From Phycisphaerales bacterium (GTDB taxonomy: Bacteria > Planctomycetota > Phycisphaerae > Phycisphaerales > UBA1924), in NCBI GenBank assembly GCA_043101835.1, contig JBICHM010000198.1, forward strand, positions 1 through 34,682: 34,682 bases of DNA, in the 5' to 3' direction. A program made the position numbers and the translations under genes. Within the stretch, counting starts at the first letter, position 1; the number at the start of each line of letters is the position of its first letter. Below the pieces are notes generated by a model. The model ran no database searches. It saw nothing but the letters and a program-made list of their open reading frames with translations, and was not told the origin of the DNA. Positions 7,647 through 26,682 of the stretch are shown piece after piece.

Positions 7647-8114
7647 TCAGCCGCCCGGATGCCCGTCGGTATCGGACGCTGGCGGCGCGATGTTGACCAT
7701 CCACCCGCTGAAGGCGTCGAGAAACGCGTCGAACCCCGGCAGGTGCTCGGCGGGAAATCCGTATTTCGCCGGCGCATCCGCGAGCGTCTCGCGGAAGGTC
7801 GCCAGCCACGCTTGGCGCGCATCCTCGTCGATCGGGAAGGGCATGTGCCGGGCCCGAAGCATCGGCGAGCCATACCGCTGCTGGTACAGCGGCGGGCCCC
7901 CGAGCAGACCGACGAAGAACGCCGCCGACTTCTTCGAGGCCTCGACGATGTCGTCGGGGAACATCCAGCGGATCTCGGACTCGGCGAGACGCAGGTAGAA
8001 GTCCTCGAGCATCCGGAAGATCGCGTCCTCGCCCATGCGGGCGTAGATCTCGGGGTTCGGGCGCTCGACGCGCGGCGGGCCCCCGACCGGAATGTGCACC
8101 TCTCGACCCGACAT
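7647..8114 (-). CDS. truncated (2-on-2) haemoglobin / bacterial-like globin
   Basis: 155 aa. Motifs FYLRL...FVGLLGGPPLYQQRYGSPMLRARHMPFPIDEDARQAWL are typical of group II/III truncated globins, with the proximal His in the RHMPF context. Confidence 0.8.
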   Translation of the reverse strand: MSGREVHIPVGGPPRVERPNPEIYARMGEDAIFRMLEDFYLRLAESEIRWMFPDDIVEASKKSAAFFVGLLGGPPLYQQRYGSPMLRARHMPFPIDEDARQAWLATFRETLADAPAKYGFPAEHLPGFDAFLDAFSGWMVNIAPPASDTDGHPGG

Positions 8115-8197: not shown

Positions 8198-9412
8198 ATG
8201 ACCACGATCGCGCCCAATGAGAATCTCGACCACCGTCGAGCGCTGAACGCGGCGATCCCGCTGCTGGCGATCGCCTCGCTTCCCGACGCCATGGTGGTGC
8301 CGGTGCTCAAGGGGCTGCTGGTCGATCGCTACAGCGTGAGCGTCGGTGCGGCGCACTGGTTCCTGGGCGTGAACATCCTCGGCGGGGCCCTCGCGGCGAT
8401 CGCGATGCGCCGGCTGGGTGCGCGCGCGGGCGGGCGCTCGAGCATCGCGATCGCGTGCCTCGTGAACGCCGCGATGCTCGCGGCGATGGCATTCCCGGTC
8501 GGATTCGGCCCGACGCTGCTGCTCCGCTTCTTCGAGGGCGGGGCGGACCTGTTCGTCTTCGCGGCGCTCTTCCATGTGGTCTCGCAAAGCGGGCCGGCGG
8601 ATCGGCGGGGCCGGCGTCTCGGCTGCGCCGCGACCTGCATGATGCTGGGCATCGCGACGGGTGTGGGCGTCGGCGGCGGGGTGGGCGCCGTTGAGCCGAC
8701 GCTGGCCCTGTGGGTCGGGGCAGGCGCATGCCTGGTCGGCGCGCTCGTGGCCCGGCTCTCGCTGCCCCAGCAGACCCTTCAGCCGCCGAGCCCTCGGGGC
8801 GATGCACCTGTGCCGCCTCGCGGGCCTCTGTGGCCCGCCATGGCGATGCACGCGGCCGACCGCGGGGTCGGCGGCCTGCTGGCCACCACGCTGCCCCTGG
8901 GCCTCGGTGTGAGCCTCGGATACGGACCGGCGGCCACAGGGCTGATCGTCGGTGTCGCCATGCTCGGGCTCGCCCTGGGCGTCTGGCCGGCAGGGCAGGT
9001 GGCTGACCGGCTCGGCTGGCGGCGCGTCCGCATCTGGAGCGCCGCTGCGCATCTGGCGGCGATGGCCCTGCTCGTCCCGGGAGCGTCCATCGGCCTTGCG
9101 CCGGCGACGGCGCTCGCCGGCTTGCTGGGCCTGGCGGGCGCCGGCCTCTTCGCGTCGAGCCTGACGCTGATCGGCCGGCACGGACCGGGCGCGATGGGCG
9201 CCTACCACGCGGCCGGGAGCGCGGGATTCCTGGCACTGCCGCTGGTCGCCGCGCTCGGGCTGACCTTGGCCGGCGGCGCCCTGCCAGGCGCCGGCGCGCT
9301 GGCGTGGGCGATCGGCGTCGCGGCCGCGATGCACGGACTGGTGAGCGTGGCGTCGCTCCTCGGCGCCCGCGATGCCGTCGTGCGCGCCCGCAGCGCACTT
9401 TCGCACGGCTAG
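8198..9412 (+). CDS. MFS-type transporter
   Basis: 404 aa with about 12 hydrophobic helices. Loop motif MRRLGARAGGRSS after TM2 resembles MFS motif A. ATG at 8198. The stop TAG (9410-9412) overlaps the convergent gene's stop. Confidence 0.75.
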   Translation: MTTIAPNENLDHRRALNAAIPLLAIASLPDAMVVPVLKGLLVDRYSVSVGAAHWFLGVNILGGALAAIAMRRLGARAGGRSSIAIACLVNAAMLAAMAFPVGFGPTLLLRFFEGGADLFVFAALFHVVSQSGPADRRGRRLGCAATCMMLGIATGVGVGGGVGAVEPTLALWVGAGACLVGALVARLSLPQQTLQPPSPRGDAPVPPRGPLWPAMAMHAADRGVGGLLATTLPLGLGVSLGYGPAATGLIVGVAMLGLALGVWPAGQVADRLGWRRVRIWSAAAHLAAMALLVPGASIGLAPATALAGLLGLAGAGLFASSLTLIGRHGPGAMGAYHAAGSAGFLALPLVAALGLTLAGGALPGAGALAWAIGVAAAMHGLVSVASLLGARDAVVRARSALSHG

Positions 9413-11409
9413 ATCAGCGATGCGTCGGTGAGGATCTCGACCGTGGCGGGCCCCGGGTACGCCAGCGCCCGCTCGATCGCATCGTCGATCGCGCCGGCGC
9501 CTTCGACGCGCAGCCCAAGGCCGCCGCATGAACTCACATACGCCGCGATATCCGGATTGGTCAGCCCGGTCTGCCAGACCGGAAGCTCGACAGCGCGCTG
9601 CTCCTTGGAGATCTTCGCGAGTTCGTTGTTGTTGAGCAGGATGTGCGTGATGTTCATGCCGTAGCGGACAGCGGTGTTGACCTCCCAGGCGTACTGCCCG
9701 AAGCCGCCGTCGCCGGACACGCAGACGACGGGGCGATCCAGGAAGCGTCCCCCCCACCGGCCTCTGACCTGCGTCGCGCACCACGCGCCGATGGCGGCGG
9801 GATAGCCGAAGCCGATGGAGCCGAGATAGCCGCTCATGAGCACGGCCTGACTTCCTGACGCCTCGAAGTACCGCCCGAAGGAGTAGGTGTTGTTGCCGAC
9901 ATCGACGGCGAGGATGGCGTCATCGGGGATGACGCGATTCATCGCGTCGAAGACGGCGATGGATGAGACGCCGGCGCCCCGGTCGTCGGCGAGTCGGCTG
10001 GCCTTCTCGAGACGCCAGATGGCCCAGCGCTCGGCGACCTCGGCCGATTGATCGGTTGCGCTGTGGCCGCCGCGGAGCGCTTCGAGAAGGAACGAGGCGG
10101 TGACGCCGATGTCGCCCCAGACTGGGACCTCCACGGCGTGGAACTTCCCGAGGTGCATGCGGTCGAAGTCGACCTGCACGATGGGTTTCTTGGGCGTGAT
10201 GCCGGTGTGGTTGCTGAACGAAGCGCCGAAGACGAGCATCGCGTCGCACTCGTTCATAAACCACGACGCGATCGGCGTGCCGCTGCGCCCCAGCACCCCC
10301 GCGCCGAGCGGGTGGCGCGGATGGTCGGCGACGAGCCCCTTGGCCTTGAAGGTGGTGAGGACGGGCGCGCCGAGCTCCTCCGCGAGCGCGAGGACCGGCG
10401 CCATGTCGAATCGCGCGCCGTGGCCGACGACGATGACCGGTCGCTTCGCGCCGCGCAGCAGCGTGGTCGCGCCGTCGAGCGCATCGGCCGGCGGCGTGAT
10501 GCGGTGGTCAGCGAAGCGCCCGTCCGGCGCACCGGCCGCGGCGCCCTCTTCCGCTGGCATCTCCTGCACATCGTCGGGGAAGATGATGTGCGCGACCTCG
10601 CGCTCGACCTTGGCCGTCTTGCACGCGAGCGACATGAGCTCCGCGTGATTCGAACCCGGCAGACAAAGATGGCTGAAGCGCGCGACCGCGCTGAATGCTT
10701 CTTTCAGCGGCAGCTCCTGGAACGCGCCGGGGCCGAAGACCTGCTGGTTCACCTGCCCCGTGAGGGCGAGCACCGGTGCACGATCGACCTTTGCGTCCCA
10801 GAGCCCGGTAAGGAGATTCGTCGCCCCGGGGCCGGCGATGGTGAGGCACGCCGCGGGATCGCCGGTGAGCTTGCCAAAGGCGCTCGCTGCGAATGCGGCC
10901 GCGCCCTCGTGGCGGATGCCGATGTAGGTGAGTTCCCCGGCGTCGCAGCGCCGCCGGATGGCGTCGGCGAGCCCGAGGTTGGAGTGGCCGACCATGCCGA
11001 AGACATGCGTCACGCCCCAGGCGACCATCGTCTCGGCCATGACATCGGTGACGGTGCGCACATGCGCCGGCTCGGCCTCGATACCGATGTAGACGCCGTC
11101 CGCGCGTTCCTCAACGGGGTAGGTCTCGACGCCGTCGTCGTAGCCGCCGGGCGGCTTGCCGGTGAGCGGATCGAAGTCCCACCCGTGCCACGGACAGCGG
11201 AGGCAACCGTTCTCGATGGAGCCCTCGCCGAGTGGCCCGCCCTGGTGCGGACAGGCGTTGTCGAGGGCGCCGTACGTCCCGTTCACGCGCGTGAGGCATA
11301 CCTGCTTGGCGCCGGCGACCACGGTCTGCACGCGACCTTCGGGCAGCGCGTCGCGCTCGGCGACTTTGTGCCAGCTGAGGGTGACCGGCCGTGGCTGTGG
11401 TTCGTTCAT
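9409..11409 (-). CDS. Rieske [2Fe-2S] domain fused to a thiamine-diphosphate enzyme (pyruvate oxidase / acetolactate synthase-like)
   Basis: N-terminal CPH-x16-CPWH (coordinates 11185-11253). The rest is a full three-domain ThDP enzyme: GPGATNLLTGLWDAKVDRAPVLALTGQV, then the ThDP-binding motif GDGGFGQYAWEVNTAVRYGMNITHILLNNNE. The ATG at 11409 overlaps the upstream stop as ATGA. Confidence 0.9.
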   Translation of the reverse strand: MNEPQPRPVTLSWHKVAERDALPEGRVQTVVAGAKQVCLTRVNGTYGALDNACPHQGGPLGEGSIENGCLRCPWHGWDFDPLTGKPPGGYDDGVETYPVEERADGVYIGIEAEPAHVRTVTDVMAETMVAWGVTHVFGMVGHSNLGLADAIRRRCDAGELTYIGIRHEGAAAFAASAFGKLTGDPAACLTIAGPGATNLLTGLWDAKVDRAPVLALTGQVNQQVFGPGAFQELPLKEAFSAVARFSHLCLPGSNHAELMSLACKTAKVEREVAHIIFPDDVQEMPAEEGAAAGAPDGRFADHRITPPADALDGATTLLRGAKRPVIVVGHGARFDMAPVLALAEELGAPVLTTFKAKGLVADHPRHPLGAGVLGRSGTPIASWFMNECDAMLVFGASFSNHTGITPKKPIVQVDFDRMHLGKFHAVEVPVWGDIGVTASFLLEALRGGHSATDQSAEVAERWAIWRLEKASRLADDRGAGVSSIAVFDAMNRVIPDDAILAVDVGNNTYSFGRYFEASGSQAVLMSGYLGSIGFGYPAAIGAWCATQVRGRWGGRFLDRPVVCVSGDGGFGQYAWEVNTAVRYGMNITHILLNNNELAKISKEQRAVELPVWQTGLTNPDIAAYVSSCGGLGLRVEGAGAIDDAIERALAYPGPATVEILTDASLI

Positions 11410-13067
11410 CGCGTTGGCTCCGCTCCGGAGGCGATGCCGACGCCCGCGTAGCGCACGCCCGCAAGGTCAGCGACCTCACGCTTCCACGAGGTCAGACTCG
11501 TCGCGTCAAACCCATGCACGTGATCATGCCCGCACGCGCGAGCCATGACCTGCATGAGTTCGACCGAGGCCTCAAAGAAGCGCGCAAGGCGCTTCGCCGA
11601 CTCGTCGATGATCAGGCGGGCGCGCAGGTGGTCTTTCTGCGTGGCGATGCCCACCGGGCAGTTGTTGCTGTCGCAGGCGCGCATGCCGAGGCAGCCGATC
11701 GCCTGGATTGCGCTGTTGGCCAGCGCGACCGCGTCGGCGCCGAGCATCATGGCCTTCACGAAGTCCGCCGGCGTGCGCAGGCCTCCGGTGATGATGAGCG
11801 TCACCGGCGCGTCCGAGCGGCGCCCGCGCCCGAGCGCTTCGAGATGGCGCCGGGCGCGCGCAAGCGCGGGGATCGTCGGCACGCTGATGTGATCGCGGAA
11901 GAGCAGCGGCGCCGAGCCGGTGCCGCCGCCCCGGCCGTCGAGAATGATGTAGTCGGCGCTCGCGGCGAGGGCGAAGTCGATGTCGTCCTCGATGTGCTGC
12001 GCGCTGATCTTGAACCCGACCGGAATGCCGCCGGTCGCCTCCCGAACCGCATCGGCGACCGCCTTGAAGTCGGGCGGCGTCTTCAGATCCGGGAAGGTCG
12101 CCGGGCTCACCGCCGTCGCGCCGACCGGAACGCCGCGGACGGTGGCGATCGCCTCGGTGACCTTCGATCCGGGCAGGTGCCCGCCGGTGCCGGTCTTCGC
12201 CGCCTGGCCGCCCTTGAAGTGGAACGCCTGACACTTCGCCACCTTGTCCATCGAGAATCCGAAGCGGGCGCTGGCGAGCTCGTAGAAGTACCGGCTGTTG
12301 GCCGCGCGCTCGTCCTCGAGCATGCCGCCCTCGCCGGAGCAGATGCCGGTCCCGGCGCGCTCGGCGCCGGTCGCAAGGGCGATCTTCGCCTCGGCGCTCA
12401 GTGCGCCGAACGACATGTCGCTGACGAAAAGCGGGATCTCGAGGCGGAGCGGCTTCGCGGCGGCGGGGCCGATGACGACCTCCGTTCCCACCGACTCATC
12501 GTCGAGCAGCGGGCGCGTTGCGAGCTGCGCGGTGAGGATCTGCAGATCGTCCCATGTCGGCAGTTGATCGCGTGGCACGCCCATCGCCCCGGACGGGCCG
12601 TGGTGCCCGACCTTCTCGAGGCCGTCGCGCGCCAGCGACTGGATCAGCCCGTTGTGCGGCTCGGCGTCATCGCCGTGGTGATCCTGGTACGGCCCCAGAT
12701 ACTGGTCGCGGTCGTAGGGCTGGGGATGCCTTGCCTCCCATGCCGCGACTTCGTCGGCGTCCACGAAGACGGCGCCATCTTCGATCCAGCAGGCGAACTT
12801 CTCGAGCCGCTCCTCGTTGTTGTACGCGCTTACGCCGGTGTCGTAGCGGTAGTCCCGCCCGTGCAACCCGCAGATGAGGTTGTCGCCGTCGATGTGCCCG
12901 TCGCTCAGCAGGGCGCCGCGATGCAGGCATCGCCCGTAGAGCGCGGAAACCTGTGTCGCCCCGGCGCGCTCGAAGCGGATGAGCACCAGATCCACTCCGC
13001 CGACGAGCGCGTGCACCGGTTCGAGCGTCTTGAGATCTGAGAGCGTCGCGACTCGGGTTGCCTGCAT
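11406..13067 (-). CDS. Rieske [2Fe-2S] domain fused to a glutamate-synthase-like FMN-binding domain (GltB domain-2 family)
   Basis: N-terminal CLH-x16-CGLH (12861-12929). Followed by DMSFGALSAEAKIALATGAERAGTGICSGEGG, GQAAKTGTGGHLPGSKV, ILDGRGGGTGSAP and IITGGLRTPADFVKAMMLGADAV. Start chosen at ATG 13067 (GGAG 6 nt upstream). ATG 13094 is an alternative. Confidence 0.88.
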   Translation of the reverse strand: MQATRVATLSDLKTLEPVHALVGGVDLVLIRFERAGATQVSALYGRCLHRGALLSDGHIDGDNLICGLHGRDYRYDTGVSAYNNEERLEKFACWIEDGAVFVDADEVAAWEARHPQPYDRDQYLGPYQDHHGDDAEPHNGLIQSLARDGLEKVGHHGPSGAMGVPRDQLPTWDDLQILTAQLATRPLLDDESVGTEVVIGPAAAKPLRLEIPLFVSDMSFGALSAEAKIALATGAERAGTGICSGEGGMLEDERAANSRYFYELASARFGFSMDKVAKCQAFHFKGGQAAKTGTGGHLPGSKVTEAIATVRGVPVGATAVSPATFPDLKTPPDFKAVADAVREATGGIPVGFKISAQHIEDDIDFALAASADYIILDGRGGGTGSAPLLFRDHISVPTIPALARARRHLEALGRGRRSDAPVTLIITGGLRTPADFVKAMMLGADAVALANSAIQAIGCLGMRACDSNNCPVGIATQKDHLRARLIIDESAKRLARFFEASVELMQVMARACGHDHVHGFDATSLTSWKREVADLAGVRYAGVGIASGAEPTR

Positions 13068-13214
13068 GCTGTGCTCCGATCGAACCGGCGCCATCGCCGC
13101 GTACCGCGATCACGCTACCATCCCCTCGCGGTCACATGGCCCTGCGATTCCGCATGTCGGGGAATACTTCACCGACGGCGACCGATTCGCCGGTTGACGA
13201 GGGAGGGGATCCCG
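13068..13214. promoter_or_regulatory. divergent intergenic region between the two Rieske operons
   Basis: 147 nt of non-coding sequence between divergent starts 13067 (-) and 13215 (+), so it must hold both promoters. No confident -35/-10 or operator could be read. Confidence 0.3.
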
Positions 13215-13436
13215 ATGCTTGTTGCAACGATCGCGTTGCTCGTACTCGCTGGGTACGTCGCCATCGGCGTCGTCTTCGGTGTGGCCTTTTCTGCTCGGGT
13301 CGTCGATCGGCTCGATTCCGCGGCGGAGGGCGCCGGCCTGGGATTCCACCTGATCATCATCCCCGGCGCCGCCGCGCTCTGGCCGCTTCTGCTCCGACGA
13401 TCACTCGGTGCGCACCGGGCAGGAGACGGCGCGTGA
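13215..13436 (+). CDS. small two-helix membrane protein (73 aa)
   Basis: ATG 13215 preceded by GGGAGGGG (13201-13208). Hydrophobic helices MLVATIALLVLAGYVAIGVVFGVAF and GFHLIIIPGAAALWPLLL. The stop overlaps the next start (GTGA). Confidence 0.55.
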   Translation: MLVATIALLVLAGYVAIGVVFGVAFSARVVDRLDSAAEGAGLGFHLIIIPGAAALWPLLLRRSLGAHRAGDGA

Positions 13437-13573
13437 CCCGCGGCCAGCGACGGGCGCACCTTCGAATCTGGCTCGTCCTCGGGCCGCTCCTCCTCGGTGC
13501 GATAGTCGTGTTGAGCGCGCTCAGGCCGGAGCGACTGGTGTCGGCGGCCCACAGCATCGAGGCTGCGCCGTGA
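13433..13573 (+). CDS. small single-helix membrane protein (46 aa)
   Basis: GTG 13433 overlaps the previous TGA (13434-13436). One helix, LRIWLVLGPLLLGAIVVLSAL. Its TGA (13571-13573) overlaps the next GTG (13570). Supported mainly by the double GTGA coupling. Confidence 0.4.
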   Translation: MTRGQRRAHLRIWLVLGPLLLGAIVVLSALRPERLVSAAHSIEAAP

Positions 13574-14631
13574 CGCACCAATACCGCATGGTGCAATGGA
13601 ATCGGCACAAGCGCATCTACGACGCGCTGGCGCTCGTGTGCATCGTGCTCTTCATCGGGGCGTTCATCATTGGCGGCAAGCTTGCCTACTCCGGCGCCAG
13701 TGCCCTCTCCGATGAGGTGTTGCTGCTCCGCGCTCTTGGCGTATGCGCGTTCCTGATGCTGCACATCGTGCTTTGCATCGGACCGCTTGCGCGGTTCAGT
13801 GACCGATTTGCGCCGCTGTTGTACAACCGCCGACACCTTGGCGTGCTGACGTTCGTCGTCGGTCTGGGACACGCGGCGCTGACCGTGCTCTACTACGGCG
13901 GCTTCGGCGACAAGAACCCCGTCGCGGCGCTGCTTGCCCACGAGGGCGCAACCGCGACAATCTCCGGTTTCCCGTTCGAGTGGCTCGGGTTCGCTGCACT
14001 GCTCATTCTCTTCGTCATGGCGGCGACCAGCCACGACTTCTGGCTGGCGAGCCTGTCGCCGCGCGTGTGGAAGCGCCTGCACATGCTGGTGTACGGCGCA
14101 TACGCGTCTTTGGTGCTGCATGTGCTGCTCGGGGTTCTGCAGAGTGAGCCGAGCCCGGTGTACCCGGCGTTGCTTGCATCCGGGGTCGCGACGGTCGCAG
14201 GGCTGCATATCGCAGCCGGCCTCAAGGAGGCTCGGCGCAATCGCGCCGCGCCGTCCGGCGCGGATGGATGGATCGACGCCGGCCTGGCAGCGGACCTGCC
14301 GGAGAAACGAGGGCGCATCATTTGTCTCTCGGGGGGCGAGCGTGTGGCGCTCTTCAGGCATGACGGCAAGATCTCGGCGACCAGCAACGTGTGCGCGCAC
14401 CAGGGCGGCCCTCTAGGCGAGGGGGAGATCATCGATGGCTGCCTGACCTGCCCGTGGCACGGTTACCAGTACCTGCCGGAGTCTGGAACGAGCCCGCCGC
14501 CGTACTCCGAGAAGATTGCGACCTACGAAGTGCGCATCGAGGGCGGACGCGTGCTGATCAACCCGGCCGCGTGTGCGCCTGGCGCCCCGGTCGAGCCGAC
14601 CCGCTTCGAAGGAGCGCCGACTGATGAGTGA
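13570..14631 (+). CDS. ferric-reductase-like (YedZ/MsrQ-type, di-haem b) transmembrane domain fused to a C-terminal Rieske [2Fe-2S] domain
   Basis: Six helices with conserved His residues (FLMLHIV, VGLGHAAL, AATSHDFW, RLHMLVYG, LVLHVLLG). C-terminal CAH-x16-CPWH at 14392-14460. Start at GTG 13570 (alternative ATG 13588). Confidence 0.85.
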   Translation: MTHQYRMVQWNRHKRIYDALALVCIVLFIGAFIIGGKLAYSGASALSDEVLLLRALGVCAFLMLHIVLCIGPLARFSDRFAPLLYNRRHLGVLTFVVGLGHAALTVLYYGGFGDKNPVAALLAHEGATATISGFPFEWLGFAALLILFVMAATSHDFWLASLSPRVWKRLHMLVYGAYASLVLHVLLGVLQSEPSPVYPALLASGVATVAGLHIAAGLKEARRNRAAPSGADGWIDAGLAADLPEKRGRIICLSGGERVALFRHDGKISATSNVCAHQGGPLGEGEIIDGCLTCPWHGYQYLPESGTSPPPYSEKIATYEVRIEGGRVLINPAACAPGAPVEPTRFEGAPTDE

Positions 14632-15448
14632 GCGCAGCGACGAACCGATCTACGTCGGCTACCTGCCGGCGCCGGCGCGCCACGGCCGCCTAGTGCGGAT
14701 TGCGGTTCCGGCGATCGCGCTGCTCGCGCTGGCGGTTGGGGTCGGCGCGGCGCTCTCGCAGCGCGATCCCGGCCCGGGCGTGTGGAGCGACGGCAGCGCG
14801 GAGTCGTTCCGCGGCGTGCTCGTCGAGCGGCCGTACCCGATGCTCGTGCCGGCCGATGGGCCTCCGCTGCTGCTTGTCGAGATGAGCAAGCGCGGCGCGC
14901 AAGGGCGCGTCGCCGGGCTGGACGGGCAAAGCGTCGAGGCGACCGGCTGGCCACTCACCCGCGAGGGGCGCAGGATGCTCGAACTCTCCCCGGAACCGGA
15001 TGCGCTGCGCGAGCTCGAGACCCCGGTCCGCGCTGCAGTCGTCGAGATGCTGTCGCAGGGATCGGCGACGCTCGTTGGCGAGATCGTCGACTCGAAGTGC
15101 TACCTCGGCGCGATGAAGCCGGGTGACGGCAAGGGTCACAAAGCGTGCGCGACACTATGCGTCACCGGAGGCATTCCGCCTGTCCTCGTCACGTTCGATA
15201 AGGACGGCGCGGCCGTTGGCTTCTACCTCATCGCCGATGAGGCCGGCGACGGCGCGAACGCGATCGCGGCGCCCTTCCTCGGCGAGCCGGTCGAGGTGTC
15301 GGGGACGCTCGCGTCGTATGCGGGGATGCAGGTCCTCCGCGTGCGCGCCGACGGGATCAGCGTCCGCTCCAGCGCAAAAAGAGAGCCGGCGGCGCCAGGA
15401 ACGGTCGCCGCCGACTCCCCACGAAGGGTGAACCAGGGTGTGCGCTGA
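14624..15448 (+). CDS. membrane-anchored hypothetical protein with a C-x14-C-x3-C motif
   Basis: ATG 14624 overlaps the upstream stop by 8 nt. N-terminal anchor IAVPAIALLALAVGVGAAL. Conserved-looking motif SKCYLGAMKPGDGKGHKACATLCVTGGIPPVL. No family recognised. Confidence 0.7.
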   Translation: MSERSDEPIYVGYLPAPARHGRLVRIAVPAIALLALAVGVGAALSQRDPGPGVWSDGSAESFRGVLVERPYPMLVPADGPPLLLVEMSKRGAQGRVAGLDGQSVEATGWPLTREGRRMLELSPEPDALRELETPVRAAVVEMLSQGSATLVGEIVDSKCYLGAMKPGDGKGHKACATLCVTGGIPPVLVTFDKDGAAVGFYLIADEAGDGANAIAAPFLGEPVEVSGTLASYAGMQVLRVRADGISVRSSAKREPAAPGTVAADSPRRVNQGVR

Positions 15449-15458
15449 CGCGCAGCGC
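15442..15458. terminator. short GC hairpin between convergent genes
   Basis: GCGCTG (15442-15447) / CAGCGC (15453-15458) with a 5-nt loop, overlapping the TGA of the upstream gene. Only 20 nt separate the two convergent stops. Weak. Confidence 0.25.
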
Positions 15459-15468
15459 CCGATTTCGG

Positions 15469-16404
15469 TCAGTTGGAGGGCGGGAGGATGACGGTGTCGA
15501 TCACGTGGATGACGCCGTTGGCCGCCTCGATGTCGGTGGCGGTGACGGTCGCATCGTTGACCGTCACGCCGCCCTGACCGGCGTTGATCTTGACCTTGGC
15601 GCCGTTCAGCGTCTTCGCGCTGTTCAGCTTCACGACGTCGGTGGCGTAGACACGCCCGGGCACGACGTGGTAGGTGAGAATCGCCTTGAGCTGATCGATG
15701 TTCTCCGGCTTCAGCAGGCTCTCGACCGTGCCTGCGGGCAGCTTCGCGACCGCCTCATCGGTCGGCGCGAAGACGGTGAAGGGACCGTCGCCCTTGAGCG
15801 CGTCGATCAGACCGGCTGCGCTCAGTGCCGCCGCGAGCGTCTCGAACGAACCGGCGCTGACTGCAACATCAACGATGTCGCGCGTCTCCGGCATGATGAC
15901 GCTGTCGATGACGTGGATCACGCCGTTCGACGCCATCACGTCGGTGGCGATCACGTTAGCGCCATCGATCGTGACCTTATCGCTCCACGCCTTGATGTCG
16001 ATCAGCTGACCGTTCAGCGTCGCGGCGGTGTCGAGCTTCACGGCCTGCGCCGCCTTCACCTTGCCGGGAACGACGTGGTAGGTGAGGATCGAAACGAGCG
16101 TGTCCTTGTTCTCCGGCTTGAGAAGGTTCTCAACCGTGCCGGCCGGAAGCTTCGCGAACGCCGCGTCGGTCGGCGCGAAGACGGTGAAGGGGCCGTCGCC
16201 CTTGAGCGCGTCGACGAGACCCGCAGCCTTGAGCGCGGCGGCGAGCGTGTTGAACTGGCCCGCGGCGACCGCGGTGTCGACGATGTCAGCCTGGGCGCCG
16301 TAGCCCTTGGCATTCTCCTTGCCGCCGGCGTTGTGGTTGTGGGCGAAGGCGGCGGGGGCGGCGGCGAGGCTCGCGGCGGCGACGAAGGTCAGCATGGTGC
16401 GCAT
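15469..16404 (-). CDS. secreted protein with two fasciclin (FAS1) domains
   Basis: Start trimmed to ATG 16404 (GAGGAG upstream). Signal peptide [21 protein letters not shown]. Two repeats of the FAS1 pattern ([33 protein letters not shown]...LTYHVVPG...[11 protein letters not shown]). Confidence 0.9.
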
Positions 16405-16760
16405 CGTGTGCTCCTCATGGCCCGCCGCAGCAGTGTGCCGGCGGGCGTGGGTGTTCGTGGTTGGTCGGAAGCCGCCCGGAAGGGCGACTTGGCCCCGTGC
16501 GCTTGTGGGGCGTGTGAACCGGTTCCTCGGAATCGCCAGCGGCTTTCGCGGCGCCGCCGCGGCCGGATTCAGCGAACTCGGCAGGTGACCCCGCGGGGCC
16601 GGGGTGCATCCGGGCACTCCTCGGTGTCGAACGAGGTCAGGAGCGATCTGCCAGCAGTCGATCGCCGCTGGTCGATTCGCCGTCCGCCGACATGTTCGCC
16701 GTCTGGACAAGGCGACTTGGGGTTGCCATGATCGATGTGTTGAACTATCGCCGAGGGGGT

Positions 16761-17441
16761 ATGACGCCGAGCGGATCGGCGCACGCGACCCCCGGCGAGT
16801 CCCGGTGGGCGATAGCGCGAACCCGCGCCAGGCCCACGCATCCGCGAGGCCGCGTGAGCGACCCGAGGTACAGCACCGAGCCCCTCCTTCCCCGCGTTGC
16901 CGAAGGCGACGACGCGGCGGTCAAGGATGTCATTCGCGAATACGGCGGCCTCGTCTGGTCGCTCGCCCGCCGGCTCTGCGGCAACCAGTCGGAAGCCGAG
17001 GAAGCCGTCCAGGAGATCTTCATCGATCTCTGGAAGAGCGCGGCCCGATTCGACCCGAGCATCGCGGCGGAACGCACGTTCGTCGCCATGATCGCCCGGC
17101 GCCGGTTGATCGACCGCCGACGCAAGGCCGGGCGACGGCCGACCATGACCTCGCAGGTGGAGGTCGCCGCCGACGCGCCGGCCGCCGGCAGCGACATGGA
17201 GATCTCCGAGGAGGCGCGCCAGGCTGCAGAAGCGTTTGAGCAGCTTCGTCCCGAGCAGCGCGATGTGCTGCACATGGCCATCTGGCGAAACATGACCCAC
17301 GAGCAGATCGCCTCCGCCACCGGCATGCCGCTGGGGACGGTGAAGACGCACGCGCGCCGGGGCATGATCCGGGTGCGCGAAATCCTTGCGAAAGCCAATG
17401 AAGCCGAGGCGGGCTCGCCGTCGAAGGGGGTGACGCGATGA
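16761..17441 (+). CDS. ECF-type RNA polymerase sigma-70 family factor
   Basis: Region 2 ([21 protein letters not shown]) and region 4 ([48 protein letters not shown]). Start is uncertain: ATG 16761 is chosen, GTG 16854 would give a more typical 195 aa, and the track ORF begins at 16692. Confidence 0.85.
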
Positions 17442-18244
17442 CCGCGATGCCCCACAACGAGCGGCTCTTTGACCTGCTTGCCGACCGCGCCCTCGACGGC
17501 CTCGACGCCGCCGAGGCGATGGAGCTGCAACGTCTGCTCGCCGAGTCCGGAGACGCCATCGCGGAGGACGAGCTCGATCTCGCCGCCGCCGCCCTGCACC
17601 TTGGATTCGGAGTCGAGCAGGAGGCGTTGCCGGAGGGCCTGCGCGATCGCATCGCGCTCGACGCCGATCGCTACGTGCGTCCGTCGTCGGCATCGAAAGC
17701 CGAAGTGCATCATGAGATTGTTCGACGACCCGACGTTGTCGCTCGCATCGGCTGGATGCCGTGGCTGGTCGCCGCGGCGGCCATCGTGATCGGCGCCGTC
17801 GGGTGGATGCGCACGTCCCCCACCGCGACACCTGAGACCCCGAATGCTGCCCCGATCACCGCGCAGTTCGCGTCGCTGCGCGACGCCCCCGGGACGGAGG
17901 CGATCGCCTGGGCGGCCCTTGAAGACCCGACCGCGCAGGGCGCCGCGGGCGAGGTGATCTGGAACGCGGCTGAGCAGCGTGGATTCATGCGCTTCGAGGG
18001 GCTTGCAGCAAACGATCCCTCGATCGAGCAGTACCAGCTCTGGATCTTCGATTCGACCCGTCCGGAGGCGACGCCTGTGGACGGCGGCGTGTTCGATATC
18101 TCCGCACAGGGCGAAGTGATCGTGCCGATCCGCGCGAAGCTGCCGGTGCGTGACGCCGCGGCCTTCGCTGTGACTGTTGAGCAGCCCGGCGGCGTGGTCG
18201 TCAGCGATCGCTCCCGGCTCGCCATGCTCGCCGCGAGAGGTTGA
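17438..18244 (+). CDS. anti-sigma factor, RskA-like (one TM, extracytoplasmic RskA domain)
   Basis: ATGA overlap with the sigma gene. TM helix IGWMPWLVAAAAIVIGAVGWM. C-terminal YQLWIFDS...PVDGGVF...FAVTVEQPGGVVVSD is typical of the anti-sigma-K RskA C-terminal domain. Confidence 0.8.
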   Translation: MTAMPHNERLFDLLADRALDGLDAAEAMELQRLLAESGDAIAEDELDLAAAALHLGFGVEQEALPEGLRDRIALDADRYVRPSSASKAEVHHEIVRRPDVVARIGWMPWLVAAAAIVIGAVGWMRTSPTATPETPNAAPITAQFASLRDAPGTEAIAWAALEDPTAQGAAGEVIWNAAEQRGFMRFEGLAANDPSIEQYQLWIFDSTRPEATPVDGGVFDISAQGEVIVPIRAKLPVRDAAAFAVTVEQPGGVVVSDRSRLAMLAARG

Positions 18245-22123: not shown

Positions 22124-24208
22124 TCAGAATCGGGGCCACTCGTCGAGCGGCGGCAACGGACGATTGAACACAAGCCGGAGCCACACCTCACCGGACGCGA
22201 CCGGGATGCGAACGTCCCACATGTCGGAGGGCGCTCCCGCCGGCGCCTGCGCCGGACGCGCGTCGAAGGCGTAGAGCATCTTCAACGCGGACCACCCGCC
22301 GAGTTCGAACCGGCCGACTGGCGCAGCGTCATTCTCGGTGTTGAGCAGTTCGAGCGTAAGCGAGCGCGACGCGTTGAAGCGGTACGGGGCGTTGATGCGC
22401 ACGTCGGTGTACGAGGCGTCCTCGACGCCCGTGAATGCCTGCGGGCGATTACGCTGCCCGCCCTCGCTCACGCGCAGGTAGTTGACATTCGTCGGCCGGT
22501 CGAGGTTCCGCTCTCCGAGCAGCACCACCGAGCAGGCGAGGTCAACAGCGGCGCCCTGCGGGCCGGTGAGCGCCTGCTTGAGCGCAAAGAGGCGCTCAGC
22601 ACGCTGTCGCTCCTGCGGGCCGAGCAGATCGGCCAGCGACGTTGCTGCGTCGCGGAGCGATGCTGGATACCCGGCGAATGCCTGCGCATCCTCCGCAGGA
22701 TCACCGCCGCCGACCAGCGACTCCACGCCGCCGAAGGCGCCGAGGGCGCCCGGCTCCACCGCCGGCACGCCCGTGTACTGCGCGAGCGGCAGCCCGTTCG
22801 AGGGCGGCGCAAAGGGGAAGCGTCCCTGGTTGTTCTGCACGAACTGGTTGTACTGCCCGACCAGCCCGCCGAACGTGTCGGCGCGGATGGCCTCGATCGC
22901 CGCGACGAGCACCTGGATCGAGTAGCGCGTCTCGAAGATGAACTCGCGTCCGCCGAGGTTCTGGCGCGCCTTCTTCAGGAAGTCGAAGGGCTCGACGACC
23001 CCCGCGCGCATCTCGGCGAGGATCCGGTCACGCGCCGCGTCCGGAGCCGCGGGGAGGCTTCGCAGGTAGTTGGTGACGAGGTTGAGCTGGCTGTCGAGTG
23101 GGTAGACGGCGAGCACGGAGCTCTCGGCCTGGCGCCCGGAGTCGATCCGGGAGAGCAAGCGGGAGACCGCGGCGCCGCGCTCGTTCTCCGGGATGACGCT
23201 CAGCGGCGTCACAGCGGTCTGGATGGCGGCGCGCACCTGCTCGAGTTGCTGCTTGGCGTCGAAGGGACGGATGTCCGGGAGCGCCTGCTCGCGGAACCCG
23301 GCCCAGGTGTCGAAGTCGCGGATGTCCGTCGCATCGGCGAGCACCGTGTCCCAGTACGCGGCGTATTCCCCGAGCCAGCCCTGCATCTGGGGCTTGATCG
23401 CGGCGAGCGCGCGTCGCGCTTCGTCGGGATTCAGCAGCGAGCTTCCCTCGCCCGTCGGCGCCACGCCGGACTGCACCATCGCGTACGCCCCCGCGATCGC
23501 CTGGCCGGCGCCGACCGAGTAGTCGGCCCGGATCAGCTCGCCGTCGGAGCGCGGCTGCAGACGCGAGAGCGTCGGCGTCGGGAACGAGCGGTCGGAGTCG
23601 GCAAAGGACGACGCGATGCCCTCGGGCGACGGCCAGCCCGCATCGAGGGCCTGCACCACGGCCTCCTGGCGCCGGAGCGCCGCGGCGAGGTCGAGCGCGA
23701 ACTGGAGCGACTCCTGCGCCGACGCCGCGCTTGCGCGAAGCTCCGGTCGATCGGACGAAAGGACGGGGTTGAGCGCCTCGTCGGCGCGGCGCAGGCGATC
23801 CTGCGCATCACCGGTGTCGGCGTCCAGTGTCGTCGCAAGGCTGGTCAGATAGATCGGCCCGTCGAGCGATGCGCCCGCGGCGAGTCGGTCCTGCGCGAGG
23901 GCGTACGCATCGAGTCGCCGCCCGATCGCGTACGAGCCGTTCGCGTCGAGGCGCTGCACGTGGGCCGCCCAGTCCTGCGCCCCCGCGGCAAGCACCTGCG
24001 CCCGTGCGTCGAAAGTTTCGTTGAACTCCGCCTGCTGCAGCGCGATTCGCGTCCGGATCGCTTCGAGCCAGCCGGCGTCGGTCTGCGGGTCGGGCGGGGC
24101 GCCCTCCGCGCCGGGCGCCGGCGGGAGCGCGCCGAGCATGCGGTTGAATGCCGCGGCGGCGGTTTCGCGGCGCTGGTTGATGACGCCGCGGACGAATGTC
24201 GGCGTCAC
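22124..24208 (-). CDS. tssM: TssM/IcmF C-terminal (periplasmic) half encoded as a separate ORF
   Basis: GTG 24208 overlaps the TGA (24205-24207) of the N-terminal half. The 117 upstream codons in the track are Arg-rich shadow. YAAYWDTVL and NNQGRFPFAPPS resemble IcmF-related and IcmF_C motifs (GRYPF). No signal peptide or TM helix at its N-terminus. Confidence 0.65.
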   Translation of the reverse strand: MTPTFVRGVINQRRETAAAAFNRMLGALPPAPGAEGAPPDPQTDAGWLEAIRTRIALQQAEFNETFDARAQVLAAGAQDWAAHVQRLDANGSYAIGRRLDAYALAQDRLAAGASLDGPIYLTSLATTLDADTGDAQDRLRRADEALNPVLSSDRPELRASAASAQESLQFALDLAAALRRQEAVVQALDAGWPSPEGIASSFADSDRSFPTPTLSRLQPRSDGELIRADYSVGAGQAIAGAYAMVQSGVAPTGEGSSLLNPDEARRALAAIKPQMQGWLGEYAAYWDTVLADATDIRDFDTWAGFREQALPDIRPFDAKQQLEQVRAAIQTAVTPLSVIPENERGAAVSRLLSRIDSGRQAESSVLAVYPLDSQLNLVTNYLRSLPAAPDAARDRILAEMRAGVVEPFDFLKKARQNLGGREFIFETRYSIQVLVAAIEAIRADTFGGLVGQYNQFVQNNQGRFPFAPPSNGLPLAQYTGVPAVEPGALGAFGGVESLVGGGDPAEDAQAFAGYPASLRDAATSLADLLGPQERQRAERLFALKQALTGPQGAAVDLACSVVLLGERNLDRPTNVNYLRVSEGGQRNRPQAFTGVEDASYTDVRINAPYRFNASRSLTLELLNTENDAAPVGRFELGGWSALKMLYAFDARPAQAPAGAPSDMWDVRIPVASGEVWLRLVFNRPLPPLDEWPRF

Positions 24209-26682
24209 GCCCTGTCCCCCGCTGCGCTGCGCAGTCGGGGCAGCACCTCGTCGATCCTCGCGCGGTGACGCTGGAGGTCGGCGTACCTGCGGAGCCAGTC
24301 GCTCTGGAGGCGCGCCGCCTGCTCCTCGGTCATGGCGCCGCCCTGCTCCGCCGCCATCTGCCAGAGCGCCCGCTCGACATCGAGGAACTGGTTGACCGCA
24401 TCCTCGAGTGTCACGAGCGAGCCGAACGCCGAGGTGTCGTTGTCCGGAGACTGGTAGCGGCCCACGACGCGCTCGACGGATCGCACAAGCCACTCGCGCC
24501 GCTGCGCAGCGCCGGCGCCTTCCGCCTCGCTGCCAAGGCCGATCGCGAACGCAAGCCACTCGCGATACTTCGCTTCATCCTCTGCGCGAAGGCGTGACGC
24601 GGTCTGCTTGAAAACCTCGGCGAACCCTGCGCCGTCCTCACTCCACGAGACGAGGTCCGCCTCGCCGGTCTGGACACGCACCACCTCCGCGACACGACCG
24701 AAGTCGATGAGCGCCGGGTCGGCGCCCAGCGCGGCGACCGCGCCGGTTGCCTCTGCGTCGATCGCGGCCTTGGGGCGCTCGCCCAGCGCGAGCGTCGACC
24801 ACCGGAGCAATTCCGCAAGCGCGCGGGCGTCGGCGTCGAGGTCGGTCGCCTCCTGCGTGGCGAGGGCGCCATCGGTCCCGGGCGCGCCCGAGAGTTGCTG
24901 CAGCGCGAAAGTCGCCGCCGGTCGGGCGGTGACGCGCGCAAGCAGCATCGCCTGCGCCTGACTCGTGTCGGCGCCGAAGGACGACCCGAAGAGGCGGCAC
25001 ATGAACCCGCCCTCGGCCGTCTCGAGGCGCGTCAGGAGGCGACGCTGAATGTCGAGGCTCGTGCCGCCGAACGCGTCGTCCCCGCCCGGCGTCGCGTTGT
25101 ACACCGGCACCGAGTCGCCGATCGGCAGGATGAGCGCCGCCCGTTCGGGGATGAACTGCCCGCCCTGATCCTCGTTGTAGAAATACGCGTCGCGCGCATT
25201 CCGCCACGGGTCGAGGTTCGCCTTCTGCCAGTTCCAGGAGCAGATGACGCCCCAGATCATGGAGGTCAGCAGCAGCGCCGCCGCGGCCCCGCCGGCGACC
25301 CACATGATCATGCGCGCCTTGCGGCGCGTGCCCTCGGCGTCGGCGGCGTCGGTGACGAGCCCCTTCTCCTGGAAGACCTTCTTCTCGATGACGTCCTTGA
25401 GGAAGTAGGCGCGATCGGCGCGGAAGATCCCGCCGCCCGAGACCGCGTCGGCGTCCTCGGCGCCGACCAGATCAGCCAGCGCATTGTCGATCGCTGCGCC
25501 CTTCTGCATCGACGAGGTGAAGAAGACGCCGCGGAAGAACGGCGGCTGATACCACGCCGTCTTCGTGAACAGGCGGTCGAGGTAGGCGCGGAGATTCGGC
25601 GCGAGCGAATCGAACGCTTCGGGGAACGCGTAGAGCTTCTCGACCTGCTCGGCGCGACGCTTGTTGGCGTCCTCGGTGTGCACGGGGTCGCGCAGCAGTT
25701 CGAGGCGGCGCTTGCGGAGTCGATCGCTGATCTCCGAGAGCGCGCCGACGACCATGTCCGGCTTGTACGGCTCATCGAGCGAAGCCGGGTTCGACCAGCC
25801 CAGCATCTGGTGCTGCTGCTCGACATCAGTGAGGTCGTCGAAGAACTCGCGGAAGCCGAGCACGCGGTCACACATGGTGACAACGATGAAGACCGGAAAG
25901 CGCACGCCGAGTCGCTGCTGCAGGCGGCTGAGACGATCGACGAAGCGCGTGGCGCGCTGCTCGATCTGTTCCGTCGTGTCGTCGAGCAGGCCTCCGGTCG
26001 CCGGCTGCTGGCCGGGCTCCACGGGCGGCGCTGCGGCGGGGAGCATGAGCACGACGCCGTTGATCGGGCACTTCTTCCGCTGCCCCTTGAGCATCGTGAG
26101 CAGTTGATCCCACTCGGCGACTTCGCCCGCTGCAACCTCCTCCACGATGATGCGGCCTGCCGTGTCGATGATCACCGCGTCGTTGGTGAACCACCAGTCC
26201 ATGTTCACTGTGCCGCCGGCGCCCTGGAAGCGATCCTGCAGTCCGGGCGGGAAGGCGATATTGCTGCGCCGGATGGCCTCGGTCTTGCCCGACCCTGGCT
26301 CACCGATCAGGATGAACCACGGCACGTCATAGACGGAGCGCCCCGCGGAGCGGAACTTCTCGATGCCTTCCTCGAACTTCTCACGCATATGCTCGAGGCG
26401 ACTGCGCTCCTCGGCGCTGGCGGTGCGCGGTTGGAGCTTGAGCATTGCCTTCAGTGATTCACTGAAGGTCTTGCCCTCCTTCTTGGCCTTGTAGCGTCGG
26501 AAGATCTCGAACGCGATGACGAGCAGCAGCACGACGACAATGCCGCCGATGAGCCAGCCCGCGGCCGCGCGCAGGAAGTAGATCGCGCCAACGCCGATAG
26601 CGCCGACGCCGACGAACGCCCCGATGCGCGCGGGCTTCGGGAGTCTGTTGAACCCGACGAGGTCGAGAACATCGCTCAGCAT
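24205..26682 (-). CDS. tssM: TssM/IcmF N-terminal half: 2 TM, P-loop NTPase, third TM, start of periplasmic domain
   Basis: TM1/TM2 (IGAFVGVGAIGVGAIYFL, WLIGGIVVVLLLVIAF). YDVPWFILIGEPGSGKTEA (Walker A at 26281-26301). NMDWWFTNDAVIIDTAGR. FPVFIVVTMCDRVLGFREFFDDL (ImcF-related domain). Third TM MIMWVAGGAAAALLLTSMIWGVI. Confidence 0.85.
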   Translation of the reverse strand: MLSDVLDLVGFNRLPKPARIGAFVGVGAIGVGAIYFLRAAAGWLIGGIVVVLLLVIAFEIFRRYKAKKEGKTFSESLKAMLKLQPRTASAEERSRLEHMREKFEEGIEKFRSAGRSVYDVPWFILIGEPGSGKTEAIRRSNIAFPPGLQDRFQGAGGTVNMDWWFTNDAVIIDTAGRIIVEEVAAGEVAEWDQLLTMLKGQRKKCPINGVVLMLPAAAPPVEPGQQPATGGLLDDTTEQIEQRATRFVDRLSRLQQRLGVRFPVFIVVTMCDRVLGFREFFDDLTDVEQQHQMLGWSNPASLDEPYKPDMVVGALSEISDRLRKRRLELLRDPVHTEDANKRRAEQVEKLYAFPEAFDSLAPNLRAYLDRLFTKTAWYQPPFFRGVFFTSSMQKGAAIDNALADLVGAEDADAVSGGGIFRADRAYFLKDVIEKKVFQEKGLVTDAADAEGTRRKARMIMWVAGGAAAALLLTSMIWGVICSWNWQKANLDPWRNARDAYFYNEDQGGQFIPERAALILPIGDSVPVYNATPGGDDAFGGTSLDIQRRLLTRLETAEGGFMCRLFGSSFGADTSQAQAMLLARVTARPAATFALQQLSGAPGTDGALATQEATDLDADARALAELLRWSTLALGERPKAAIDAEATGAVAALGADPALIDFGRVAEVVRVQTGEADLVSWSEDGAGFAEVFKQTASRLRAEDEAKYREWLAFAIGLGSEAEGAGAAQRREWLVRSVERVVGRYQSPDNDTSAFGSLVTLEDAVNQFLDVERALWQMAAEQGGAMTEEQAARLQSDWLRRYADLQRHRARIDEVLPRLRSAAGDRA

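Follow-up and report, generated by a model that had tools for sequence, protein, structure and literature searches.

Do six neighboring genes that encode three different Rieske [2Fe-2S] fusion proteins form a single electron-transfer chain? This question is raised by a contig of a Phycisphaerales bacterium (Planctomycetota; GenBank assembly GCA_043101835.1, contig JBICHM010000198.1, positions 1 to 34,682 of the forward strand), the whole of which was analyzed and is hereafter called the window. Within positions 9409-15448, open reading frame (ORF) listing combined with Pfam and NCBIfam scans yielded six genes, designated A to F (Table 1): A combines a Rieske domain with a thiamine diphosphate (ThDP) enzyme, B combines one with a flavin mononucleotide (FMN) domain of the glutamate synthase (GltS) type, E combines one with a ferric reductase-like membrane domain (FRD), and C, D, and F encode two small membrane proteins and a membrane-anchored double beta-barrel protein. 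An initial annotation of the same DNA had proposed that the six genes make up a self-contained chain. We find that the locus instead consists of two autonomous operons, B-A and C-D-E-F, which are facultatively linked and lie side by side in some genomes only. As for function, we favor, with a probability of roughly 40%, a reading in which A and B would act as substrate dehydrogenases, with electrons leaving through their Rieske domains to E and being exported from there to F.

The three C-x-H-x16-C-x-x-H motifs reported initially were recovered at exactly the same coordinates by a regular-expression search of the translated genes and a six-frame scan of the whole 34.7-kb window. All three are in-frame and lie within Pfam Rieske matches (PF00355) above the gathering score (63.0 bits for A, 42.4 for B, and 51.1 for E; cut-off 20.3), and they therefore represent real domains rather than chance matches. 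The sole extra occurrence (10994-11062, minus strand) lies within gene A but in a frame that does not code, and is a chance product of GC-rich DNA. The G+C content of the window is ~70% throughout, and at that composition the bare motif can arise by chance in off-frames rich in Cys, His, and Arg. Pfam host domains also confirmed the fusion of these Rieske domains to a ThDP enzyme, a GltS-like FMN domain, and a ferric reductase. The gene overlaps were likewise all correct as first described: ATGA at the B stop and A start (11406-11409), GTGA at the C stop and D start (13433-13436) and again at the D stop and E start (13570-13573), and 8 nt between E and F (14624-14631). Whether the fusions already existed in databases had been left to be checked, and all three proved to be present there as large conserved families that carry no functional name.

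Next, we evaluated how far the six genes are kept together. Starting from A, we took the best 80 of at least 599 matched stretches from species-representative genomes (63–76% identical, >10 phyla, mostly marine metagenome-assembled genomes, or MAGs) along with two further loci (L001 and L002), i.e., 82 loci in total, and surveyed them by tblastn with the six window proteins and by clustering of all ORFs. Nearness was defined as lying within 10 kb of A, and frequencies were calculated for the 47 loci with ≥8 kb on either side of A (“full-flank” loci). B was near A in 18 of these 47 loci (38%), nearly always upstream and on the same strand, and the two genes are translationally coupled both in the window and in L166; the remaining 62% had no B nearby. 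E and F were found together near A, usually with C, in nine full-flank loci (19%), while independent placement in a ~4 Mb genome would bring A next to C/E/F in only ~0.5% of loci. The association of A with C/E/F is thus facultative and non-random, at ~30 times the chance level. It was observed in Planctomycetota, Alphaproteobacteria, Myxococcota, and a Poriferihabitaceae MAG, with gene orders that vary from C-E-F-B-A on one strand (L015) to A-B-C-E-F (L075), A-C-E-F without B (L018), and several divergent layouts (L017, L060, and L068). The divergent layout of the window itself was found once, on a 4.74-Mb contig (L166).

The same genes look different when seen from F, where 80 loci were retrieved from metagenomes with the F alignment and two more by exact look-ups (n = 82). 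In every locus whose contig extends far enough, E is the gene immediately before F, and C precedes E in most of these loci by tblastn, with a C ORF cluster detected in 31 loci. D was found by tblastn in eight loci (49–61% identity), and genes of 49–56 amino acids (aa) were called at its position in L084 and L166. Full-length A, on the other hand, was near F in a single locus (L155, where all genes are present), and B in three (L099, L142, and L155). C-D-E-F thus stands as a module in its own right, and its distribution is far broader than that of its link to A/B. Its recurrent neighbors encode an extracytoplasmic function (ECF) sigma factor, a zf-HC2 anti-sigma factor, a SpoIIE phosphatase, an AhpC/Redoxin+YHS protein, DoxX_2, DinB_2, and TANGO2, a set that suggests a role in envelope redox or thiol stress. 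Overall, the initial view of the locus holds in part: B-A and C-D-E-F are each conserved and the proximity of A/B to E/F is recurrent and non-random, but the six genes are not co-conserved as one unit, and the self-contained chain gives way to two modules with an optional link between them.

For gene A, all three ThDP-enzyme domains were recognized (TPP_enzyme_N, _M, and _C at 109, 101, and 100 bits), and both the catalytic Glu and the GDG…NN motif are kept. Its top NCBIfam match was pyruvate oxidase PRK08611, at 337 bits compared to a cut-off of 742, and it also fell below the cut-offs of PoxB (PRK09124, 253 vs 792) and SpxB (255 vs 638). The best match in the PDB was Escherichia coli PoxB (3eya, E = 2.5e-52), with an alignment that covers PoxB residues 3-526; as A ends six residues beyond this point, it would not have the C-terminal tail of PoxB, and the lipid-binding peptide (PoxB residues ~549-572) is indeed absent from A in the alignment. 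PoxB docks on the membrane through this lipid-binding tail. No membrane helices were predicted in A. The best 120 homologues of A are 68–88% identical, all share the Rieske+TPP architecture, and are named only “thiamine pyrophosphate-binding protein” or “pyruvate oxidase”. A relatives are encoded in 575 of the at least 599 matched stretches, and the family extends across Planctomycetota, Acidobacteriota, Gemmatimonadota, Poribacteria, Myxococcota, Alpha- and Gammaproteobacteria, and a tubeworm symbiont.

B contains a Glu_synthase domain (PF01645, 287 bits) that aligns with residues 854-1141 of the Azospirillum GltS alpha subunit, and a residue-by-residue comparison with 2vdc indicates that the Cx5Cx4CP, GGGTGSAP, and KxxQxAKxGxGGxLPG motifs of GltS are all retained. 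The score for the complete GltS large subunit was not reached (138 bits vs a cut-off of 1047, NCBIfam). Pfam detected no N-terminal nucleophile (Ntn) amidotransferase, central, or GXGXG domain in B, and none of these recurred among the neighbors at A loci. Like A, B has no predicted membrane helices, and its best 120 homologues (69–88% identical) all share the Rieske+Glu_synthase architecture and are named “glutamate synthase-related protein”. The start of B is ambiguous (13065-13094), with an ATG at 13094 giving 562 aa and another at 13067 giving 553 aa; the database representative has 553 aa, and homologue alignments start near residue 10.

A and B are 63–76% identical between Planctomycetota, Proteobacteria, Gemmatimonadota, Poribacteria, and other phyla (loci L003-L082). 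Such values are unusually high for enzymes of 550–670 aa and suggest that the genes have spread horizontally, chiefly among marine bacteria, that constraint on them is very strong, or both. Owing to the strong conservation of the sense genes, two stop-free antisense ORFs on the plus strand opposite A (10048-11451, 467 aa) and B (11391-13040, 549 aa) also cluster as “conserved” across loci; both are artefacts of high G+C.

Other genes recur around B-A. A 290-aa gene with a weak DUF5996 match was near A in 11 of the 47 full-flank loci (23%), usually adjoining it. Across all 82 A loci, it was found in 20, often between B and A (e.g., L058:9071-9955, L048:9144, and L034:9028), in Gammaproteobacteria (Woeseia), Nitrospirales, Gemmatimonadota, and Myxococcota. 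This gene, which is not found in the window, may encode a further subunit of the B-A system. In four loci from Poribacteria (L036, L042, L047, and L059, ~7.2-9.8 kb), A is preceded on the same strand by a PALP-domain pyridoxal phosphate (PLP) enzyme and a class-III aminotransferase instead of B; since 2-oxo acids are products of both enzyme types, this arrangement gives a hint as to the kind of substrate that A uses. Lastly, a gene of the Na+/H+-exchanger family, often accompanied by a TrkA_C-domain gene, lies next to A or B in eight loci from different phyla (L001, L002, L024, L048-L050, L061, and L075), and the corresponding place in the window is taken by a major facilitator superfamily (MFS) transporter gene (8198-9412).

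The membrane module is centered on E, which has a Ferric_reduct match (PF01794) at 47 bits (cut-off 28) and six hydrophobic segments. In an alignment of 74 sequences, two His pairs are invariant (H89/H101, H-x11-H, 13834-13872; H171/H184, H-x12-H, 14080-14121), along with H155, H213, and the Rieske ligands C275/H277/C294/H297. Located in helices 3 and 5 and spaced 11 and 12 residues apart as in NOX/FRE, these pairs are the predicted ligands of b-type haems. E did not reach the MsrQ equivalog cut-off (36 bits vs 130, NCBIfam), and its C-terminal domain is a Rieske domain, in place of the dehydrogenase domain of NOX/FRE that binds flavin adenine dinucleotide (FAD) and NAD(P)H. Basic residues are found at the N-terminus, in loops 2-3 and 4-5, and after helix 6 (RFSDRFAPLLYNRRH, PRVWKRLH, and KEARRNR), and by the positive-inside rule this would place both ends of E, including the Rieske domain, in the cytoplasm. 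Export of this Rieske domain by the twin-arginine translocation (Tat) pathway was considered and rejected, as no twin-arginine motif lies ahead of helix 6 and the positive-inside rule points to the cytoplasm. The FRD+Rieske architecture is catalogued, with no function given, in the domain survey of Zhang et al. 2013 (PMC3591440).

F homologues are named “hypothetical protein”, although an exhaustive profile search returned 2,850 cluster representatives at E ≤ 1e-3. An AlphaFold2 model of F (mean predicted local distance difference test, pLDDT, 88) consists of an N-terminal helix followed by two beta-barrels with a helical insert. A fold search of the PDB with this model gave no match to a solved structure at E < 1e-3, generic oligonucleotide/oligosaccharide-binding (OB) folds such as SSB and LysRS were rejected as weak likenesses (best E 1.5e-3, TM 0.2), and Pfam offered only a weak sub-threshold match to DUF5818. 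The modelled fold of F thus appears to be novel. Family alignments identified one invariant patch, GEIVDSKC-x4-M-x7-H-x2-C-x3-C, with C159, M164, H172, C175, and C179. Tat export of F was also rejected, since the alignment shows no conservation of the twin-arginine, in place of which the window protein reads RHGRLVR. E and F are encoded by a single 610-aa ORF in L166 (6535-8367, minus strand), and four of the best 150 representatives of the F family are E-F fusions as well (P0366, P0394, P0445, and P0447; 600–629 aa, Ferric_reduct + Rieske then F). Such natural fusions are evidence that E and F act as a complex, and their order (FRD, Rieske, F membrane helix, and barrel) fits a cytoplasmic Rieske domain and a periplasmic barrel.

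We then compared the three Rieske domains with one another and with solved structures. The pair from A and E shares 41% identity (77 bits); that of B is the most divergent, at 28–32% identity to the other two. Among solved structures, the domains of A and E come closest to the small Rieske ferredoxins of oxygenase systems (40–46 bits). Since the two are thus more similar to each other than either is to any solved Rieske protein, we counted this resemblance in favor of A/B as donors to E. The same comparison could be taken to indicate a conventional catabolic system built around a Rieske non-haem-iron oxygenase, given that the best PDB matches of the Rieske domains are ferredoxin components and the Rieske domains of oxygenase alpha subunits. 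However, Pfam and NCBIfam identified no catalytic domain of the Ring_hydroxyl_A or VanA_C type and no FNR-type reductase, either in the six proteins or elsewhere in the window. A known oxygenase system was rejected on this basis and has only a minimal probability; nor does the well-characterised pathway of this kind for which the initial annotation had left room apply to the locus.

The resemblance between Rieske domains A and E also bears on whether the genes are functionally connected at all. Three fusions could serve three independent processes, each with generic partners such as ferredoxin reductases or quinones, and be adjacent through co-transfer or chance. Each module stands alone in most loci, one complete genome (L165) has B with no A nearby, and the horizontal spread suggested by the cross-phylum identity of A and B is a process able to carry adjoining genes along. 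Yet co-localisation in at least four distant lineages, in differing gene orders and at ~30 times the chance level, is hard to reconcile with mere adjacency, the Rieske domains of A and E are specifically alike, and coupled start and stop codons indicate operons. We consequently consider independent neighbors improbable.

Under the reading that we favor, B would interconvert an amino or imino acid and a 2-oxo acid, A would oxidatively decarboxylate a 2-oxo acid, probably through FAD, and the Rieske domains of both would act as one-electron outlets. More specifically, B may make the 2-oxo acid that A oxidises, with both enzymes handing their electrons to E. E-F would then operate as a NOX/MsrQ-style electron exporter, from the Rieske domain to the inner haem, the outer haem, and finally F, with the Rieske domain of E predicted to be cytoplasmic and the barrel of F periplasmic from the positive-inside rule. 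This exporter would serve an envelope redox task, e.g., thiol, metal, or repair chemistry, often under ECF-sigma control. Where the two operons are adjacent, as in the window, A and B would be dedicated cytoplasmic donors to E, and each module would also work in genomes without the other nearby. The outward direction is suggested by analogy to other FRD proteins, which export electrons, and the role of A as a donor by analogy to POX-type enzymes, which donate them. For B, the dehydrogenase direction would be favored by the potential of ferredoxin-type Rieske centers, which is ~-150 mV, and by the replacement of B with an aminotransferase and a PLP enzyme in Poribacteria.

Several observations weigh against this scheme. 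A and B are rarely found near F (1/82 and 3/82 loci), E-F is missing from the 10-kb surroundings of A in 81% of full-flank loci, and on chromosome OZ245745.1 B-A (~2.58 Mb) and C-E-F (~0.04 Mb) are ~2.5 Mb apart. In addition, the position of PoxB Phe465, a residue implicated in electron transfer from ThDP to FAD, is occupied by Lys in the alignment of A. Finally, the GltS domains characterised so far run reductively in vivo, which would favor A feeding B.

This last point leads to a scheme in which electrons stay within the soluble pair. A would oxidise a 2-oxo acid, e.g., pyruvate, and pass electrons through its own Rieske domain and that of B to the [3Fe-4S] cluster and FMN, where an imino or oxo acid is reduced, i.e., a glutamate synthase-like reductive amination independent of NAD(P)H and ferredoxin, with C-D-E-F as a separate envelope system. 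Established enzymology fits on both sides: electrons are taken up by every characterised GltS FMN domain and given off by every POX/PoxB enzyme, and Rieske-to-Rieske transfer is precedented in oxygenase systems. B-A is also the tightest link in the locus (same order and strand, coupled in the window and L166, and B near A in the 18/47 loci above), at least 18 of 31 A contigs longer than 100 kb appear to carry a B homologue, and C-D-E-F is autonomous in most loci. Conversely, no amidotransferase or GXGXG gene is conserved nearby to complete a GltS, a Rieske center at ~-150 mV would be a poor reductant for a GltS-type [3Fe-4S]/FMN pair, and 62% of full-flank A loci do without B nearby. Poribacteria moreover swap B for makers of 2-oxo acids rather than for electron consumers, and C/E/F is enriched beside A (19% vs ~0.5% by chance). 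Such a pairing is the main alternative to the reading that we favor, with a somewhat lower probability.

Electrons might also flow inward, with E-F taking them from a periplasmic donor or quinol and passing them on, via its cytoplasmic Rieske domain, to B or to a reverse-running A, where they would drive reductions in the cytoplasm. The domain layout fits either direction, GltS-type domains are normally reductases, and the likeness between the Rieske domains of E and A could mean that both donate to B. All characterised proteins of the FRD superfamily (NOX, FRE, STEAP, and MsrQ), however, send electrons outward (PMC3591440 and established knowledge). Quinol would be too weak a reductant for a low-potential Rieske center or FMN without energy input, and the neighbors of C-D-E-F point to envelope stress rather than assimilation. 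We judge inward flow to be quite unlikely.

Returning to the export of electrons from A and B through E to F, one may further ask whether this amounts to an undescribed electron route independent of both NAD(P)H and quinone, a proposal that we advance only tentatively and regard as doubtful. Such a route would run from cytoplasmic amino-acid and 2-oxo-acid oxidation, at FMN/[3Fe-4S] in B and at ThDP and presumably FAD in A, through docking Rieske domains to the di-haem protein E and on to a new type of periplasmic Cys/His/Met barrel in F. In full-text searches of the literature, we encountered no study that characterises Rieske-ThDP, Rieske-GltS, or FRD-Rieske proteins. The parts belong to known superfamilies, yet fall outside PoxB, GltS, MsrQ, and NOX proper. 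If the route exists, redox work in the envelope, for example on thiols, metals, or repair, would be driven directly by central-carbon oxidation. A Rieske domain built into a ThDP enzyme of the pyruvate oxidase type would offer a new means of drawing single electrons out of ThDP chemistry, and one that feeds or drains a GltS barrel would give this fold a new electron interface. C-D-E-F would join the small set of bacterial systems that carry electrons across the inner membrane to the envelope (DsbD/CcdA, MsrQ, and NOX), with a partner of novel fold. In any case, the A and B families are widespread, unusually conserved across phyla (63–88% identity), and without a functional name.

Regarding the regulation of the membrane module, an ECF sigma/RskA pair lies 1.2 kb downstream of C-D-E-F in the window. 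The genes on that side are a tandem-fasciclin gene (15469-16710, minus strand), the ECF sigma factor (16692-17441), and an RskA_C anti-sigma factor (17438-18244). No Rfam match was found anywhere in the window, no sigma-70-like promoter in 9000-16000, and no clear ECF-type motif in the 120-bp region between B and C. A guessed ECF pattern, GGAAC-N15-18-CGT, occurred upstream of C in 5/49 loci compared to 1.8 in shuffles and was not clearly enriched. The heptamer [G/C]CATC[C/G]A was found in 13 of 48 regions upstream of C (including L087, L088, L092, and L128), compared to 2.4 ± 1.4 in shuffles, and in five of these 13 regions GAA[A/C][C/T] lies 14–19 nt further upstream (0.07 expected), forming an ECF-promoter-like pair. 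This pair is not found in the window's own region upstream of C.

Features of the six-gene locus are collected in Table 1. Elsewhere, the window encodes a copper-type P-type ATPase with YHS and HMBD domains (333-2705), a truncated (bacterial-like) globin (7647-8114), and type VI secretion genes (24205-28803), of which one has an IcmF-related N-terminal domain and another belongs to the VasE (ImpJ) family.

Table 1 Coordinates of genes, domains, and motifs in the B-A and C-D-E-F operons of the window.
Feature	Position	Strand	Size	Description
B-A and C-D-E-F operons				back to back on opposite strands in a 6-kb stretch
Gene A	9409..11409	-	666 aa	N-terminal Rieske [2Fe-2S] + PoxB/pyruvate-oxidase-like ThDP enzyme
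Rieske domain of A	11086..11376	-		residues 12-108; cluster motif residues 53-75, 11185-11253, CPHQGGPLGEGSIENGCLRCPWH
ThDP core of A	9418..11058	-		residues 118-664
RHEG of A	10903-10914	-		catalytic-Glu motif
GDG-x24-NN of A	9625-9714	-		ThDP motif
Gene B	11406..13094	-	562 aa	N-terminal Rieske + GltS-type FMN/[3Fe-4S] triosephosphate isomerase (TIM)-barrel domain
Rieske domain of B	12750..13055	-		residues 14-115; motif residues 56-78, 12861-12929
GltS FMN domain of B	11529..12497	-		from alignment to 2vdc
Cx5Cx4CP of B	11655-11693	-		[3Fe-4S] motif
GGGTGSAP of B	11907-11930	-
QAAKTGTGGHLPG of B	12168-12206	-		QxAKxGxGGxLPG loop
Divergent intergenic region	13095..13214		120 bp	between B-A and C-D-E-F
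Gene C	13215..13436	+	73 aa	two predicted membrane helices
Gene D	13433..13573	+	46 aa	single predicted membrane helix; GTGA overlaps at both ends
Gene E	13570..14631	+	353 aa	ferric reductase + C-terminal Rieske
Ferric-reductase domain of E	13735-14112	+		six helices
Rieske domain of E	14269-14559	+		predicted cytoplasmic; motif 14392-14460 near C-terminus
Gene F	14624..15448	+	274 aa	N-terminal membrane anchor ~14678-14758, then double beta-barrel (predicted periplasmic)
Invariant patch of F	15077-15181	+		GEIVDSKCYLGAMKPGDGKxHKACATLCxxGGIPP, from alignments

Compared to known systems, A shares with E. coli PoxB (3ey9/3eya) and the pyruvate oxidase of Lactobacillus plantarum (1pow/2ez4) the same three-domain ThDP fold, including the RHE and GDG-x24-NN motifs, but differs by an extra N-terminal Rieske domain of ~115 residues and by having no C-terminal lipid-binding peptide. 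B keeps the barrel, the [3Fe-4S] motif, and the GGxGTGxAP FMN and QxAKxGxGGxLPG motifs of the GltS alpha-subunit FMN domain (Azospirillum 1ea0/2vdc and Synechocystis 1llw), with which we group stand-alone GltB-domain-2 and N-methylglutamate-synthase MgsC-like proteins as its nearest likenesses. Unlike GltS, which relies on a beta subunit or ferredoxin, B has an N-terminal Rieske domain. The Rieske domains of A and E share the low-potential-type box C-P-W-H-G-W with Rieske ferredoxins (BphF, T4moC, CarAc, and the NDO ferredoxin) and with NirD, whereas here they are fused to non-oxygenase enzymes, without an oxygenase or reductase component.

E-F resembles members of the FRD superfamily (MsrQ/YedZ-MsrP, NOX/FRE, and MamZ) in its six-helix domain with two His pairs and in having a periplasmic partner encoded directly downstream. 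The predicted electron-entry module of E, however, is a Rieske domain rather than an FNR-like FAD/NADPH domain or the Fre flavin reductase, and its partner is F, which has no molybdopterin domain, rather than the molybdoenzyme MsrP. Finally, the fasciclin, ECF sigma, and RskA genes of the window resemble the mycobacterial SigK-RskA-MPT70/83 arrangement. The SigK-RskA regulon includes the fasciclin proteins MPT70 and MPT83 and DipZ, a transmembrane conduit of reductant. Similarly, an ECF sigma factor, an RskA_C anti-sigma factor, and a tandem fasciclin lie beside C-D-E-F in the window, and many stand-alone C-D-E-F loci adjoin an ECF sigma/anti-sigma pair, but the predicted conduit is here a haem/Rieske protein instead of a CcdA-type thiol carrier.

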